A stretch of DNA of 31,139 nucleotides from Candidatus Bathyarchaeum sp. (GCA_004376385.1 SOJY01000063.1:1-31139); one strand, 5' to 3'; positions 13,606-28,140 are shown, counted from the first letter of the stretch. Notes: a model not told the origin generated them from the sequence alone. Numbers and translations are program-made.

Positions 13606-14046
13606 CTATAGGTCGAATGAGGTTTTGATCTTTATGAGACGCGTGGCTGCAGAAAGCGACACTTCCCTGACTCCCGGCATCATTTCGACTCTTTTTCTGA
13701 GGTCGCTTAGGTGCTCCAGATCGTGCGCATGAACCACTGCCACGATGTTGTATTCGCCGGTGTTCTGGAAAACGTGATAGGCTTCGGTTAAGTCGCTTAT
13801 TTGCTCGGACGTTTTTTCGAAGTGGTCAGGAGCTATCTTGACCATCAGTATGCCTGTTGTAGAGTATCCGATCTTTTTGGGATTAAGCAACACCGTGAAT
13901 TTGTTGATGATGCCATTGTCGATTAAGTTTTTGACGCGGTATCTTACTGTAGCCTCGCTGATTCCCAACTCGTTGGCTATATGCGTGTAAGAAGTTCTTG
14001 AATTCTCCTGAAGCAAATTCAAGATTCTCCTGTCCTTATCATCCAA
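13606..14046 (-). CDS. Second Lrp/AsnC-family regulator (start TTG 14046 rather than 14091)
   Basis: LDDKDRRILNLLQENSR.SY..IA.ELGISEATVRYRVKNL HTH; TG.Y..V RAM domain; divergent from pheA. Confidence 0.88.
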   Translation of the reverse strand: MDDKDRRILNLLQENSRTSYTHIANELGISEATVRYRVKNLIDNGIINKFTVLLNPKKIGYSTTGILMVKIAPDHFEKTSEQISDLTEAYHVFQNTGEYNIVAVVHAHDLEHLSDLRKRVEMMPGVREVSLSAATRLIKIKTSFDL

Positions 14047-14247
14047 CCGAAACACCAACAACACCCACCATAGACAACAACAAAAAAACATTTATTACTA
14101 TCGCACAAACCACAAACTACTGTTCAAATTTTCCTGTTCAACACTTTGGAAAACATCGTAATTTGCTGGAAACCTTGCCAGTTTTTGTGGTAAAGTGTTT
14201 TATTTTGGCTTTCATGTCAGATATTAGAATGGAATGGTGTGTTTGTG

Positions 14248-15078
14248 TTGCGGGTTGCTTTTCAGGGAGAACTTGGCGCTTATAGTGAGAGTGCAGTTTA
14301 CAGTTTTTTTGGTCAGTCTGCTGAGGTGAAGCCCTGCAAAAGCTTTGGTGATGTCTTCGAAAGTGTCAAAACTGGAGACGTAGATTATGGGGTTGTTCCC
14401 ATCGAAAACTCTATCGAGGGCAGCGTAAACCGCACCTACGACCTCTTCCTAGAATATGATCTGAAAGTCTGCGGCGAAATAATCATCAGAATCAGTCACT
14501 GCCTCATAGCCCACAAAGGAACCAGCATAGACTCGATCAAAAACGTCTATAGCCATCCCCAAGCCTTAGCACAATGTAGAAAATTTCTAGAACAGCATAA
14601 GCTCAAGGCAATCTCTACTTTTGATACTGCAGGCAGCGTAAAGATGATTAAAGAAGAAAACATGATGGACGCCGCAGCAATAGCCAGCGAAAGAGCCGCC
14701 CAAATCTACGACATGACCATACTCGCAAAAGAGATAGAGGACATCAAAAACAACTCCACCAGATTCTTTGTCCTAGACAAGCAGGACTCGTCCTATTCTG
14801 GAGAAGACAAAACATCCATAATTTTTGCAACCAAATCGATTCCCGGGGCATTATACAAGATATTGGGAGAGTTTGCTGACAGAAACATAAACCTAAGCAA
14901 GATAGAGTCTAGACCCACCAAGCAGACTCCATGGGAGTACCACTTCTATCTAGATTTTGAGGGGCACAGAACCGAAACAAAATGCCAAGAAGCCCTAGAA
15001 AGCATCAAAGACAAAACAATCTTTGTAAAAATCTTGGGCTCCTACAAGGCAGCCAAAAAACCCAACTTCAAACTCTAG
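14248..15078 (+). CDS. pheA: Prephenate dehydratase with ACT domain (start TTG 14248 or GTG 14239)
   Basis: AFQG..GAYSE, VPIENS.EGSV, SHPQAL.QC, TRF, PGAL...L..F....INLSKIESRP. Confidence 0.95.
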   Translation: MRVAFQGELGAYSESAVYSFFGQSAEVKPCKSFGDVFESVKTGDVDYGVVPIENSIEGSVNRTYDLFLEYDLKVCGEIIIRISHCLIAHKGTSIDSIKNVYSHPQALAQCRKFLEQHKLKAISTFDTAGSVKMIKEENMMDAAAIASERAAQIYDMTILAKEIEDIKNNSTRFFVLDKQDSSYSGEDKTSIIFATKSIPGALYKILGEFADRNINLSKIESRPTKQTPWEYHFYLDFEGHRTETKCQEALESIKDKTIFVKILGSYKAAKKPNFKL

Positions 15079-24025: not shown

Positions 24026-25063
24026 TTAGATGAACTTCTTTACTTTCAAGTATTCTGCGTTAAGGATGCCGCATCCAGCAGCTCCCCGTATGGTATTGTG
24101 CCCCAAAGCAATAAATTTCACCCCACCTAACACGGGGTCCTTTCGGATTCTACCAACTACGGTGCTCATGCCCTTGCCCTCCATTCTGTCCAATCTAGTT
24201 TGTGGACGATCCTTCTCCCATGTAACAATAACTGGTTTTTCTGGGGCTGAAGGAAGCTTTAGCTTTTGGGGTTCCCCAACAAAGTTTTCCATAGCCTCAG
24301 CTACAGCATTGGGTTCCGCCTTCTTCTTTGTCTCTACGAAGACGGCTTCCATGTGACCATCAATCGTTGAAACTCTGTGGCAACTGGATGAAACCTTAAA
24401 ATCTGCTGGTTTTGAAGCAGTGCCCAAAATCTTCTGGGTTTCAGTTTCCATCTTGTTCTCTTCTCCTCCGATGAAGGGGATAACATTATCCACTATATCC
24501 AAGGAGGCTACGCCTGGGTATCCAGCGCCCGAGATCGCCTGCATCGTAGACACTATGAGGCTGTTGATGCCAAACTCGTCAAAGATCGGCTTCAGGGGCA
24601 AAGTTAGGACTGTTGTGCTGCAGTTGGGGTTTGTTACGATGGCGCCGTCCCACTTCCTTTTTCTGCGCTGTTCCTCTATGAGGCTGACGTGGCTGCAGTT
24701 TATTTCAGGATTCAGCATGGGAACGTCAGGGTCCATTCTGTGAGCAGATGCGTTGCTAACCACAACGTATCCTGCAGAGGCGAAATCCTCTTCCACCTTT
24801 CCAGCCACAGCAGAAGGTAACGCCGAGAAAACAATGTCAACATCCTTAACTGCCCTCGAGTCAATATCTACGACTTCCATCTGCGCAACAGCTTCCGGAA
24901 TGGGCGTTGATTGCCGCCACCTTGACGCTTCATTGTATGTTCGTCCTTTGCTTCTTTCTGAGGCTGCAACAGTTGTAACCTCGAACCATGGGTGCCCATC
25001 TAGCAGTTGAACAAAGATTTGACCGACATTGCCTGTTGCTCCTAAAACAGCTGCTTTCAACAT
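24026..25063 (-). CDS. asd: Aspartate-semialdehyde dehydrogenase (archaeal type)
   Basis: LGATG.VGQ, ASERS.G, SNAS..RM, NPNCST, QA.SGAG, HNTIRGAAG. Confidence 0.96.
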   Translation of the reverse strand: MLKAAVLGATGNVGQIFVQLLDGHPWFEVTTVAASERSKGRTYNEASRWRQSTPIPEAVAQMEVVDIDSRAVKDVDIVFSALPSAVAGKVEEDFASAGYVVVSNASAHRMDPDVPMLNPEINCSHVSLIEEQRRKRKWDGAIVTNPNCSTTVLTLPLKPIFDEFGINSLIVSTMQAISGAGYPGVASLDIVDNVIPFIGGEENKMETETQKILGTASKPADFKVSSSCHRVSTIDGHMEAVFVETKKKAEPNAVAEAMENFVGEPQKLKLPSAPEKPVIVTWEKDRPQTRLDRMEGKGMSTVVGRIRKDPVLGGVKFIALGHNTIRGAAGCGILNAEYLKVKKFI

Positions 25064-26316
25064 TTTCTGTCATCTCGTAATGCGTTTCTAACCAAATTTA
25101 GGGCTTTTTCTCTTTCGTCCCATTTTACGAAGAGAAGAATGCTGGAAGTGATTGTCATAAGTCCAAAAATGTTAATGCAGTTTACCCTCAAAGCCTCGGA
25201 TATTCTTCCTGTGAGACCCGGCGTCTGTTCTAAGCCAACGCCCTTGATTTTGAGGAATGCTAATTGTTTCCTGACAGACATGGCCAAGGTCTCCTCGTGA
25301 TTCAGGATTACTTCATGCACTTTCTCTAGAAGCAATTTGGAATTAGAGTTCTCTGAAACGTAGAGAATCATTGAATCGTAGTTCAAGGATAATCCCAGCA
25401 GTTCCGCGTGGTTCTTCACTGTTTCAGCAAGCTCTTTTATAACCTGAGGACTTTCTGAAACCCCTTTGCCTACAACAGTAATCGACAGGGAAGGAGATGG
25501 ACTTGCAAGTTCTACATCCAAGTCGCTTGAGAGTGCTCCCTTGATCAACGTACCCTCCGCGTTTAGATCGCCGTGAATGTGCTTGATTACCCTAACTTTT
25601 ACTGACGCATCCTTGTATCGCAATGCTTTCCTGTGAATGAATTTTGTGCCCGAATCCGCTAATCCAACCAAAGTGCTCACATCAATCTCTGGAAGACGCT
25701 TAGGATTGTCTATTACCTTGGGGTCGGCTGACATGATTCCTTCAGCATCAGTAACTAGGATAAGTTCATCCGCTTCTAAAGCCTTCGCTAAGATAAAGGC
25801 AGTTGTATCACTTCCACCCCTCCCCAATGTGGTTACTCGATTGTCTTTGGTTCTGCCCACGAAACCCGCAATCACAGGGATAACGCCATCCTCAACAAGG
25901 GGAAGCACATTCTGTTTAGCCCGTTCGTAGCAAGTATCCAAAATTGGGTTTGCATCTGAGAACAAGTCATCAGTTATGATCGGCCATTCGGGGTCGTGTG
26001 GGTCCACGTAACGGGAGTTCACTCCCTGTGCTTTTAATGCGGCGGCGATGATTCTGATGCTGGTTCGTTCCCCCATGGCCAGAATCTCGTCTAAATCTTT
26101 CTTATGTAACCTACCATTAGAGCTGTTTTTGGCTGCGTGAAAGAGTGTATCCGTGGTTTTTCCCATAGCCGAAACGATCACGGCGATTTGGGTACCCTTC
26201 TTTGCTTCTTTAGCAACTGCCGTAACTGCCCTCAATATCCGTTCGTGGTCTGCGAGGCTTGAACCTCCAAATTTAACCACGATTCTTTTGCGGTTTTTTT
26301 CCTTATTTTGTTTCAT
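25057..26316 (-). CDS. lysC: Aspartokinase with C-terminal ACT domains (start ATG 26316; in-frame ATG also at 26334)
   Basis: VVKFGGSS, VSAMG.TTD, GE..S, TLGRGGSD.TA, TD..G...ADP; GGAGG at 26332-26328. Confidence 0.92.
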   Translation of the reverse strand: MKQNKEKNRKRIVVKFGGSSLADHERILRAVTAVAKEAKKGTQIAVIVSAMGKTTDTLFHAAKNSSNGRLHKKDLDEILAMGERTSIRIIAAALKAQGVNSRYVDPHDPEWPIITDDLFSDANPILDTCYERAKQNVLPLVEDGVIPVIAGFVGRTKDNRVTTLGRGGSDTTAFILAKALEADELILVTDAEGIMSADPKVIDNPKRLPEIDVSTLVGLADSGTKFIHRKALRYKDASVKVRVIKHIHGDLNAEGTLIKGALSSDLDVELASPSPSLSITVVGKGVSESPQVIKELAETVKNHAELLGLSLNYDSMILYVSENSNSKLLLEKVHEVILNHEETLAMSVRKQLAFLKIKGVGLEQTPGLTGRISEALRVNCINIFGLMTITSSILLFVKWDEREKALNLVRNALRDDRKC

Positions 26317-26335
26317 AACAACTAAACCCTCCATG

Positions 26336-26380
26336 AAGCCCAGAAAGCTAAGATGCGAATTTTTTTAGCTAGCTGGGCTT
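26336..26380 (-). promoter_or_regulatory. 14-bp imperfect hairpin directly upstream of the lysC SD
   Basis: AAGCCCAG-cu-AGCUAA / 13-nt loop / UUAGCU-uu-CUGGGCUU. Confidence 0.6.
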
Positions 26381-26453
26381 AATTATAAAAGAAATAGCTA
26401 AAGCTATAGAACATCGAAGAATTACTCGTTGAAGTCGTCGAGTGGCTATTCAT
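26379..26453 (-). CDS. Putative Phe/Tyr-rich leader peptide MNSHSTTSTSNSSMFYSFSYFFYN (not in the ORF track)
   Basis: Hand-translated: ATG 26453 to TAA 26381-26379; second in-frame ATG at 26414; upstream of the aromatic operon and downstream of a BRE-TATA. Confidence 0.55.
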   Translation of the reverse strand: MNSHSTTSTSNSSMFYSFSYFFYN

Positions 26454-26495
26454 ATGCCCAGTTTCCTTTGCTTGACACAAGAAAAACCCTCTTCT

Positions 26496-26511
26496 TATAT
26501 AAAAAATTATC
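26496..26511 (-). promoter_or_regulatory. Distal BRE-TATA for the lysC-aro operon
   Basis: Minus strand GATAAT-tt-TTTATATA; predicted start ~26472, giving a ~155-nt leader. Confidence 0.5.
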
Positions 26512-26575
26512 GTAGAGAAAAAATGGAGGCAAAAGACGACTTCAAAGTACGCCTATGCCCATACTGCTTGAATGC

Positions 26576-27919
26576 TTAAACATATTTCCTGAGGTGTTCT
26601 TTTGCTTCGTTGATACTTTGGAAACCGTATTTGATGTCCTTGAAGCTCTGCCTCAATTTGATGACATCCTTTCGTACTTCGGCGCGGGTCCTCTTGCCCT
26701 TCATGACATCCAAGATCAAAGAACACAGGCGCTCTATGTCATTTTCTTTGAAGCCTCTCCGAGTCACATCCTGAAAACCTATCCTGAGACCCGACGGGTC
26801 ACCATGGTTGTGCTGATTATCGTAAGGCAAAAGATTCTTGTTCAGAACAATGTGGGCATCCTCAAGACTAAACGCGAGCTTCTGTCCGCCACCATAATCT
26901 CGAACATCAACAGCAATCTGGTGGGAACGCGTAAAACCATTCTTTCTTCCCAAAACCTTCACGCCATTCTCGAACAGGTACTTGCCCGCTGTCTGAGCGT
27001 TCTTAATTGTCTGCTTAGCCAACTCTTTACCGTACAGTTTCAGCTCCAATGCGGCTAAACCCAAGGCAGGAAGCCGTCCAAGATGAGTGCTCGAGGCGCT
27101 CAACGGGAATACCGCATGCTGCACCTTCTTGATTGCCTTCTTCATCCGTTCGTCTTCACAATTCGCGAGGATAACTCCGCCTTGAGGTCCTGGAAAAGTT
27201 TTGTGAGTTGACGCAGTTATGAAATCCACGCCTTCTCCGAAGGGGTCCTGAAACTCTCCGCCGGCAATCAAGCCCAAGACATGCGCTGCGTCATAAACAA
27301 CGTAGGCACCCGTTTCCTTAGCAACTTCTGCCAGTTCCTTAACGGGGTGAGGAAACGGGAAAACGCTGCCTCCGAAAGTCACTATGCCCGGTCTAGCTGT
27401 GTCGATTATTGTAGCAGACTTTTCTGAGTCAATGTTCAGTTCGTCTATATCGTAAGCGTGATTAATGGTCTCCAACCCCAATACTCTACCGGCAAGACCA
27501 GAGTAGTCATGACTGATATGAGCCCCAGCACTAAGTGGCAAAACAACCATCCGGTTATTTTTTGTTGCCAAAGAGACGCCTTTGAAGGTGGCAAGATTCG
27601 CGTGGGTACCTGAGACAAGCCGCACGTCAGCCCAGTTACATCCGAACAGATTTTTCATCAAATCTGCTGCGTAATTCTCGATTTTTGTAATGTATTTCTG
27701 ACCTTGATAGTGCCTCGCTTTAACGTGGCCCGCAAGGTCATTTTCTCCTTCGGCGTACCTGGATTCCAAGTCCTGTGACAAGCTTAGTATTTCGTTCACT
27801 GCCGGAGATTTGAGTCCCTCACTTGCAATCAGATTTATGCACTCTTCTCCCCGGTATCGTTCATGGTCTTCGCTGGATTTAATTAACCCGAGAGCTAACT
27901 TCAAGAAGTCATCTTCCAT
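26576..27919 (-). CDS. glyA: Serine hydroxymethyltransferase, archaeal type (start ATG 27919 after GGGAGG rather than 27973)
   Basis: NLIASE, RYAEG, YQG, SGTHAN, HISH, DAAHVLGLIAGG, STHKTFPGPQGG (PLP lysine), SG.RIG. Confidence 0.95.
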   Translation of the reverse strand: MEDDFLKLALGLIKSSEDHERYRGEECINLIASEGLKSPAVNEILSLSQDLESRYAEGENDLAGHVKARHYQGQKYITKIENYAADLMKNLFGCNWADVRLVSGTHANLATFKGVSLATKNNRMVVLPLSAGAHISHDYSGLAGRVLGLETINHAYDIDELNIDSEKSATIIDTARPGIVTFGGSVFPFPHPVKELAEVAKETGAYVVYDAAHVLGLIAGGEFQDPFGEGVDFITASTHKTFPGPQGGVILANCEDERMKKAIKKVQHAVFPLSASSTHLGRLPALGLAALELKLYGKELAKQTIKNAQTAGKYLFENGVKVLGRKNGFTRSHQIAVDVRDYGGGQKLAFSLEDAHIVLNKNLLPYDNQHNHGDPSGLRIGFQDVTRRGFKENDIERLCSLILDVMKGKRTRAEVRKDVIKLRQSFKDIKYGFQSINEAKEHLRKYV

Positions 27920-28140
27920 CGCCCATTTTCCTCCCAAACAGTTCCTCAGGGCATTTTGTTGGTTTCTGAGCATTACGTCACTTATTTACATTTCTTCACA
28001 CGAAAAACCACAGCACCAGCTTGTAACTTCAAAGGGCTTCGGCTGACAGTTTCCTGTTAAGAAATGGATGTATCATAAGTCAATATTTTGAGTTCATAAA
28101 GCTTTTCTTTATTTTCAATATCGATCTAAGCGGTGTAACC

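Follow-up and report, generated by a model that had tools for sequence, protein, structure and literature searches.

A stop-codon-anchored RNA hairpin between a Phe/Tyr-rich leader and lysC in Candidatus Bathyarchaeum as a candidate archaeal attenuator

The aromatic amino acid operon and its leader

In Candidatus Bathyarchaeum sp. (GCA_004376385.1 SOJY01000063.1:1-31139; this whole stretch of 31,139 nucleotides is called the window in the following), lysC is preceded by a short leader open reading frame (ORF) rich in Phe and Tyr codons, and the interval between the leader stop codon and the Shine-Dalgarno (SD) sequence of lysC is filled by a single RNA hairpin. A first-pass annotation of the window had described this hairpin, formed by segments 2 and 3 of the leader RNA and termed 2:3 here, as one of several mutually exclusive stems linking the leader ORF to the lysC ribosome-binding site. 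From its energy, its z-score, covariation and its occurrence in 14 sequence families, the hairpin is a genuine strand-specific RNA element joining the leader ORF to the ribosome-binding site.

All features of the locus lie on the minus strand. Pfam assignments led to an operon of the order lysC-asd-aroA'-aroB'-aroD-aroE-aroK-aroA-aroC with lysC as the first gene. The first genes encode aspartate kinase, aspartate-semialdehyde dehydrogenase, a DeoC-family aldolase (AroA') and dehydroquinate synthase II, the later ones dehydroquinase, shikimate dehydrogenase, a GHMP kinase, EPSP synthase and chorismate synthase, and an aminotransferase and prephenate dehydrogenase come after the aro genes. Close relatives belong to Candidatus Bathyarchaeum as well, for example B. 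tardum (CP122380.1) with a lysC identity of 84%. The features required in the following are (window coordinates, minus strand denoted by (-)):

26576-27973 (-): SHMT gene, preceding the promoter-like block
26514..26491 (-): promoter block TACGATAAT-TTTTATAT-AGAAG, similar to a B recognition element (BRE) and TATA box, nearly invariant in 25 congeneric species (alignment A1)
near 26473 (-): predicted transcript start, from the usual archaeal TATA-to-start spacing
26454..26473 (-): 5' untranslated region (UTR), about 20 nt long and containing the word CUGGGC (26461-26456) besides a weak SD-like AGGA
26453-26379 (-): leader ORF MNSHSTTSTSNSSMFYSFSYFFYN, 24 codons, stop codon TAA at 26381-26379
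26385..26411 (-): Phe/Tyr tract TTC TAT AGC TTT AGC TAT TTC TTT TAT, including segment 1 (26402-26395)
26380-26336 (-): hairpin 2:3, whose first two pairs involve bases 2-3 of the leader stop codon; 5' arm AAGCCCAG..AGCUAA (26380-26365), loop (26364-26352) and 3' arm UUAGCU..CUGGGCUU (26351-26336)
26327..26332 (-): SD of lysC, GGAGGG, 3 nt past the hairpin; GGAGG-like in 25/25 congeners
25057..26316 (-): lysC (aspartate kinase), Pfam AA_kinase and ACT domains, with a conserved start ATG at 26316-26314

The longest possible lysC ORF begins in frame at an upstream ATG (26334), which overlaps the SD and is not conserved. The ATG at 26316 is kept as ATG, TTG or GTG in the alignment of the 25 species, and the start assumed by the first-pass annotation was therefore adopted. 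For the comparative analysis, lysC linked to aro genes was found in 161 of the 401 sampled genomes of the class, and 24 congeneric and 80 further upstream regions were gathered.

A conserved hairpin from the leader stop codon to the lysC SD

Segment 2 (AAGCCCAGCUAGCUAAA, 26380-26364) and segment 3 (UUAGCUUUCUGGGCUU, 26351-26336) match the minus-strand sequence and form a hairpin of 14 base pairs (bp) with -19.1 kcal/mol. Folding of the stop-to-SD interval gave a z-score of -5.1 compared to dinucleotide shuffles, with none of 300 shuffles being equal, and a z-score of only -2.08 was obtained for the entire 176-nt leader. The inverted repeats were also recovered by a repeat search, with I1 corresponding to the hairpin, I3 to the 8-nt pairing of segments 1 and 2 (1:2) and I4 to the pairing of the 5' CUGGGC word. 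Covariation was assessed by counting paired alignment columns against shuffles and by RNAalifold. Within the genus, 94.9% of the alignment cells of 2:3 were paired. Ten pairs vary on one side, always from C to U or from A to G, whereby G-U pairs are retained in the sense RNA, and one pair changes from G-C to A-U (leaders L022-L024) with the G-U intermediate present in L005.

Beyond the genus, a hairpin lying flush between stop codon and SD was found at 75 loci of the Bathyarchaeia, belonging to 14 sequence families that are not mutually alignable. These hairpins have a median energy of -18.3 kcal/mol and a median z-score of -4.1 (19 representatives of the 14 families). Their 5' base lies -3 to +5 nt from the end of the stop codon (-2 to 0 in 62 of the 75 loci), and their 3' end is followed by the SD after 0-9 nt, with 3 nt as the mode. 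Bases 2-3 of the stop codon pair and covary with the last two bases of the hairpin, UAA being combined with UU, UAG with CU or UU and UGA with UC, the latter in three separate families. This covariation is strong evidence for an RNA structure that is tied to the end of the leader ORF. The two strands also differ in composition: the 5' half is purine-rich in 14/14 families, and the U content of the 3' half plus tail is 0.40 compared to 0.18 in the 5' half (12/14 families, p 0.0006), reaching 0.48 in the genus Bathyarchaeum. Here the hairpin is followed by UUCAU and then by the SD; a U-run at this position is not conserved across the families.

In leader L012, the same A-to-C change (TAGCT to TCGCT) is found in both hairpin arms, which breaks two pairs and is uncompensated; it looks like a parallel change in a direct repeat. 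Leader L050, a relative of family f9, carries an aromatic leader without flush hairpin, and a local 8-bp hairpin (GCCUUUAA/UUGGAGGC) contains its SD.

The leader ORF and the position of its aromatic codons

Seven of the last ten sense codons of the leader encode Phe or Tyr. In the 25 congeners the leader start is kept (ATG; TTG in L016), the stop codon is TAA, TAG or TGA, and all indels are in frame. Class-wide, a short ORF with 5-11 Phe, Tyr or Trp codons among its last 14 was detected at about 77 of 110 loci, the leader peptides being otherwise unrelated in sequence (for example FFSFDYYFYYFN, FFDFFYYYFYFE, NPYYYYYYYCFF and FSGYWYTFNY). The frequency of these aromatic codons is 0.5-0.9 over codons -12 to -2, counted back from the stop codon, with a peak of 0.73-0.92 at codons -3 to -5 and a decrease to 0.50 at -2 and 0.36 at -1. 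The tract of codons -12 to -2 is thus about as long as one ribosome footprint. A ribosome at the peak codons, with a front extending about 12 nt beyond the A site, would reach just to the base of the helix; a stall at codon -1 or -2 would melt the helix. The conserved features of the element are the flush hairpin, the aromatic tract ending short of the helix, and the purine-rich 5' and U-rich 3' strands.

Synonymous sites of the leader are near-invariant in the genus, with a codon heterozygosity of 0-0.08 at several codons compared to 0.33-0.50 at invariant residues of lysC, where third positions vary freely. TTC and TAT are each retained in 25/25 species and AGC in 24/25, indicating a constraint on the Phe/Tyr tract at the nucleotide level. 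The source of this constraint could be 1:2, a small hairpin inside the tract, a stem between the tract and the translation initiation region (TIR) of lysC or something else, the variation in the genus being too small to choose. A fusion of leader and lysC by frameshifting was also considered and rejected because stop-to-start distances vary modulo 3.

Competing stems

Segment 1 (UUUAGCUA, 26402-26395) and its partner (UAGCUAAA, 26371-26364) likewise match the minus-strand sequence, and the 5' CUGGGC (26461-26456) and the SD (GGAGGGUU, 26332-26325) are present as claimed. The stems proposed from these words, 1:2, the pairing of CUGGGC with segment 2 and that of segment 3 with the SD (3:SD), are indeed topologically incompatible with 2:3, but their pairing is weak and lacks conservation. 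As drawn, 1:2 has an energy of -4.4 kcal/mol and 3:SD also of -4.4 kcal/mol (best local fold -5.2), and the duplex of 5' UTR and segment 2 reaches -12.7 kcal/mol. When 1:2 and 3:SD were forced in the full leader, -27.7 kcal/mol resulted compared to a minimum free energy (MFE) of -42.6 kcal/mol. With this deficit of 15 kcal/mol, the alternative stems would win only if a ribosome masks segment 2.

None of the three stems could be upheld as an evolved pairing. For 1:2, covariation was absent in the genus and 500/500 shuffles were as good; moreover, the G-to-A change of L022-L024, for which 2:3 has a compensating change, leaves 1:2 with a C-A mismatch. No covariation was detected for 3:SD, where the SD variants GGAUGG, GGAGUG and GGAGGA are uncompensated in segment 3. 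The pairing of 5' CUGGGC with GCCCAG is present in 96% of the alignment cells of the genus, with covariation no better than in shuffles. The surrounding word AAGGAAACUGGGY in the 5' UTR is conserved within the genus, and a competitor of the CUGGGC type was not found in the 5' UTRs of other families. A search across the families for a competitor of the 5' arm in the 5' UTR or early ORF gave a mean z of -0.29 (p 0.13) and was suggestive in this genus only. Compared to codon permutations, duplexes of the type 1:2 and tract:TIR showed a mean z near zero across the 14 families, with single strong cases in L084 (1:2, z -4.9) and L100 (base stem, z -4.5), and tract:TIR duplexes were not enriched when set against random segments upstream of 498 control genes (median -6.6 vs -7.4). 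The 3' arm exceeded the 5' arm in complementarity to the SD in 7/14 families and fell below it in the other 7/14, and the freed 3' arm together with the downstream region showed no consistent effect across families when compared to shuffled arms. As these cross-family tests gave no consistent signal, there is no second conserved helix. The 1:2 and 5' CUGGGC pairings may add to control in the genus Bathyarchaeum; the conserved design needs neither.

Two further structures were proposed by RNAalifold, a small hairpin within the tract and a long-range pairing of the 5' UTR with the spacer of lysC. The 5' UTR word AACUGGGC (26454-26466) can pair with GGGUUUAGUU (26317-26329), located between the SD and the start codon of lysC. 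Covariation of this pairing is weak, with three double-change pairs in the genus and 31-86 of 500 shuffles being equal.

Ribosome position and accessibility of the SD

The first-pass annotation had also deduced that a ribosome stalled at the Phe/Tyr codons leaves 2:3 closed and the SD open, and that a ribosome at the stop codon masks segment 2. Both parts agree with the geometry and with folds in which the RNA covered by the ribosome was masked, whereas 3:SD as the specific helix that closes the SD did not stand. With all RNA 5' of the stop codon covered, the mean SD accessibility was 0.60 in 15 families, and it was 0.36 when the mask was extended 11 nt into the 5' arm, a decrease observed in 13/15 families (p 0.001). 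The same two masks in the genus Bathyarchaeum left the SD unpaired with 0.70 and 0.24. Masked folds of full-length leaders were noisy and gave inconsistent SD accessibilities, and only a stall in the middle of the tract differed from a ribosome at the stop codon (12/15 families, p 0.03, uncorrected).

Proposed mechanism

Taken together, we tentatively favour, with slightly less than even confidence, that the element is a ribosome-mediated Phe/Tyr attenuator built on a single hairpin. Upon starvation, scarcity of charged tRNA-Phe and tRNA-Tyr would make the leader ribosome wait in the tract, mostly at codons -3 to -5, where its front edge would meet the base of the helix and the hairpin would stay shut. 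The shut hairpin would hide the U-rich strand and leave the SD in a short single-stranded stretch, with lysC and the operon being on. When Phe and Tyr are plentiful, ribosomes would advance to the last codons and the stop codon, unzipping about 10 nt of the 5' arm, and the 3' strand would become single-stranded beside the SD. Expression could then be lowered by one or both of two routes. The freed 3' strand might pair with the SD, as the first-pass annotation had proposed, in the genus by a weak, G-U-rich pairing of CUUUCUGGGC with (C)UUGGAGGG, or the U-preferring termination nuclease FttA/aCPSF1 might reach the nascent RNA before a lysC ribosome loads. The OFF event would hence be a ribosome reaching the stop codon, since this releases the U-rich 3' strand next to the SD. 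In such a scheme the hairpin would be the counterpart of the classical 2:3 antiterminator, and the unpaired U-rich strand would stand in for a 3:4 stem. Models in which the ribosome melts an inhibitory or terminating hairpin have the wrong sign for a biosynthetic operon unless stalls are confined to the last two codons, where aromatic residues are depleted.

An ortholog of FttA is encoded in the genome (TIGR03675, 908.8 bits with a cut-off of 580.2; G000 C3:13216-15099). FttA plays a Rho-like role in archaea, and its published structures indicate that it requires RNA that is single-stranded and by preference U-rich at 20-36 nt behind the RNA 3' end (PMC11616081). At this locus the 3' strand would be single-stranded only as long as the 5' arm is masked. 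The 3' strand would be at this distance with the polymerase at the first lysC codons, when the SD has not yet emerged, and polarity mediated by FttA at this site is plausible. The more far-reaching proposal of an archaeal one-hairpin attenuation, in which a ribosome at the stop codon exposes a U-rich strand to FttA/aCPSF1 (and to the SD) and a starved ribosome keeps this strand hidden, is speculative and, in our estimate, unlikely.

Several observations weigh against the one-hairpin attenuator. The direction of the switch was deduced from geometry and composition alone. In families B, J, K and N the 3' strand is only weakly U-rich. The strand asymmetry may also reflect inheritance and not selection; since compensatory changes via G-U intermediates keep the purine/pyrimidine orientation, the 14 families do not count as fully independent cases. 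SD accessibility is predicted to change only modestly (about 2- to 3-fold), and the largest family, B, shows no effect of the mask (0.52 vs 0.49). Pairing of the SD with the 22 nt upstream of it exceeds that in 503 other genes of this genome (p 0.002), but this is a composition effect, as the pairing is no better than in their own shuffles (7/14 families, p 0.23). Aromatic codons persist at -1 and -2 in one third to one half of the families. The hairpin should re-form fast after the ribosome has left, so that repression needs dense ribosome traffic or slow termination. Finally, a mechanism with one hairpin gives no account of the near-invariant synonymous sites, nor does any tested helix account for them.

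Alternative explanations

The leader could instead act by sequestration and melting, as in attenuators of the ErmC, SecM and mycobacterial poly-Cys upstream ORF (uORF) type, where the naked Phe/Tyr codons would pair with the SD and start of lysC and a stalled ribosome would free the SD. Such a mechanism has been supported by experiments for Ms5788A in Mycobacterium (bioRxiv 10.1101/834739) and predicted for the actinobacterial LEU element (PMC1262725). The codon-SD pairing would be a long lower stem stacked beneath the hairpin, and the MFE structure of this leader does pair UCUUUUAU with AUGGAGGG, AGCUA with UAGUU and UAUAGC with GUUAUG (total -43.5 kcal/mol). The probability of an unpaired SD is 0.01 in the ribosome-free leader, the 5th percentile among GGAGG-led genes of the genome, compared to 0.41-0.73 under a ribosome mask in the middle or late part of the tract. 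However, the lower stem is not conserved and is lost in congeners with UAUUUUUAUUAU or an altered lysC spacer; accessibility of the naked SD ranges from 0.01 to 0.85 within the genus, and averaged over the class (0.35) it is the same as for ordinary genes of this genome (0.36). The energy of tract:TIR pairing is class-wide no better than that of codon permutations or random upstream segments, and the start of the hairpin exactly at the stop codon would be unaccounted for. We regard sequestration as the main rival, with a low probability. We consider it rather improbable, too, that the hairpin does not switch at all and is a constitutive insulator or stabiliser that folds away the stop-to-SD spacer, shielding an uncoupled polymerase from FttA or RNases during a leader stall or stopping re-initiation on lysC. 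Regulation, if any, would then reside elsewhere, for example at the promoter or in the protection of the U-rich ORF by ribosomes. This would agree with a hairpin that takes up the whole gap and leaves no unpaired RNA on either side, that has no conserved competitor helix, and that is 15 kcal/mol more stable than the alternative fold of the first-pass annotation, and with the requirement of FttA for single-stranded RNA; transcriptional control could be provided by the promoter word TACGATA and the Lrp/AsnC-family gene of the window, which are both described below. A protective hairpin, however, need neither include and covary with the stop codon nor hold the purine/U asymmetry, and the placement of the tract relative to the helix base suggests that contact between ribosome and hairpin matters.

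Translational coupling would reverse the role of the leader, with finishing ribosomes opening the hairpin and re-initiating at, or handing over to, lysC and thereby boosting its translation. Unfolding and termination-reinitiation coupling are known in prokaryotes (review PMC12548453), leader genes have been proposed as re-initiation boosters (PMC4833913), and a closed hairpin would reduce the effective stop-to-start distance. Coupling would lower expression upon starvation, the opposite of what a biosynthetic operon requires, and a ribosome at the stop codon has already unzipped the helix that would join the two sites. In addition, the stop-to-start distances of 51-77 nt extend outside the 1-65 bp examined, with a frequency peak at 10-11 bp, in the booster proposal (PMC4833913). 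We give this explanation little credence. Classical transcription attenuation with the hairpin as an intrinsic terminator or pause hairpin could be suspected from the U4-U6 directly past the hairpin in families D, E and F and in L021-L025 of the genus. A scan of 26200-26700 detected no site resembling an intrinsic terminator, though, and families B and C lack the U-run. Archaeal intrinsic termination relies on oligo-U rather than on hairpins, and an explanation of this type appears scarcely tenable. The least probable alternative, and a highly improbable one, is a DNA operator, with the AGCT cluster and the palindrome ATAGCTTTAGCTAT as transcription factor sites, which the first-pass annotation had named as the reading that would speak against its stems. 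The five AGCT tetramers in 26346-26405 are present, five in 60 nt compared to about 0.27 expected from the window average. AGCT occurs 139 times in the window (about 1 per 224 nt), not above the window's own shuffles, and the five thus form a local cluster. The near-invariant synonymous sites of the leader and the identical A-to-C change in both arms of L012 would also fit an operator. Against it, the genus retains only three of the AGCT words and other families none, the site would be located 70-135 nt downstream of the TATA box, and the structure is conserved with unrelated sequences in 14 families. The one-sided arm changes are compatible with wobble pairing only on the minus-strand RNA; on the other strand they are A-C mismatches, and they break the palindrome, which argues against protein binding to DNA.

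Further observations at the locus and in other families

The word TACGATA (26508-26514, minus strand), located immediately 5' of the TATA box, is invariant in 25/25 congeners and may serve the operon promoter as a BRE or as a site for a regulator. An Lrp/AsnC-family regulator gene (13606-14091, minus strand) lies beside a divergent prephenate dehydratase gene (14239-15078, plus strand) where the aromatic cluster ends on its far side; its product is a candidate transcriptional regulator of the aromatic pathway. A sigma-70 promoter scan of the locus gave no match. A cmscan of 25800-27000, which surrounds the region 26200-26700, against 4227 Rfam families with E-values up to 10 resulted in no match, including Phe_leader (RF01859). 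When the genome was scanned for the arrangement of ORF, hairpin and SD with other amino acids, 47 weak matches were obtained and this locus alone was convincing; for Cys- and His-rich short ORFs of the genome, no suitable gene was found downstream.

Upstream of lysC in other families of the Bathyarchaeia (L051-L077 and L102-L106), neither an aromatic leader nor a flush hairpin is present. These loci carry a different conserved upstream ORF, MGD.LFGDGVY..., ..GGYIFGGHIYGDHYW.. or MGGHLYWHKPAPE, the core of which, TTTTCGGTGATGGCGTTTAC, is near-invariant in nucleotides, contains two SD-like GGTGA words and lies 130-200 nt before lysC. A leader of another type, an arrest peptide and an RNA element are all conceivable here.

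Significance

Attenuation by leader peptides is a textbook mechanism of bacteria, and our literature search led to descriptions for bacteria only, with no archaeal precedent found. New in this work are the definition of an RNA architecture across a class and the negative result on the competing stems. About 75 natural variants define the RNA architecture behind the archaeal aromatic leader, and the locus offers falsifiable designs linking translation, RNA folding and possibly FttA-dependent termination in Archaea, in a lineage, Ca. Bathyarchaeum, for which an enrichment culture and complete genomes now exist. With lysC and asd at the head of the operon, both genes are predicted to be under aromatic control and not under that of lysine or threonine. 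If the speculative form with FttA is true, Archaea would have a first case of an amino-acid-sensing attenuator that is coupled to factor-dependent termination, and a direct in vivo use of transcription-translation coupling for archaeal gene control.

Comparison with known systems

Like trpL-trpE and pheL-pheA of E. coli, the locus has a short leader ORF rich in codons for the end products of the pathway. The 5' arm of the trp 2:3 antiterminator begins just after the leader stop codon and is masked by a ribosome at the stop codon, not by a stalled one, a geometry shared by the Bathyarchaeum hairpin. Unlike trpL and pheL, the archaeal locus lacks a conserved 1:2 or 3:4 stem, an intrinsic terminator and an Rfam match, and its output is probably translational and/or FttA-dependent instead of relying on intrinsic termination.

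Ms5788A (bioRxiv 10.1101/834739) would be similar in that an amino-acid-sensing uORF precedes a biosynthetic operon and controls SD availability, with polarity downstream, and in both leaders (here in the predicted MFE structure of this window) the regulatory codons pair with the SD. In Ms5788A the duplex of codon tract and SD is the core of a demonstrated mechanism, whereas here this duplex is not conserved and the conserved part is the stop-to-SD hairpin. The LEU element upstream of leuA (PMC1262725), itself a prediction, also combines a run of regulatory codons with a compact structure closed by a stem of codon run and SD. It forms a pseudoknot with a conserved sequence and a proposed protein ligand, in contrast to the simple hairpin of free sequence found here, where the stem is specific to the individual sequence. 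With tnaC-tnaA of E. coli, the leader would share the principle that access of a factor-dependent terminator to RNA beside the leader stop codon is controlled. In tna, the stalled ribosome blocks the entry site of the factor and induces a catabolic operon; in the arrangement proposed for Bathyarchaeum, the hairpin would keep this site out of reach and a terminating ribosome would uncover it.

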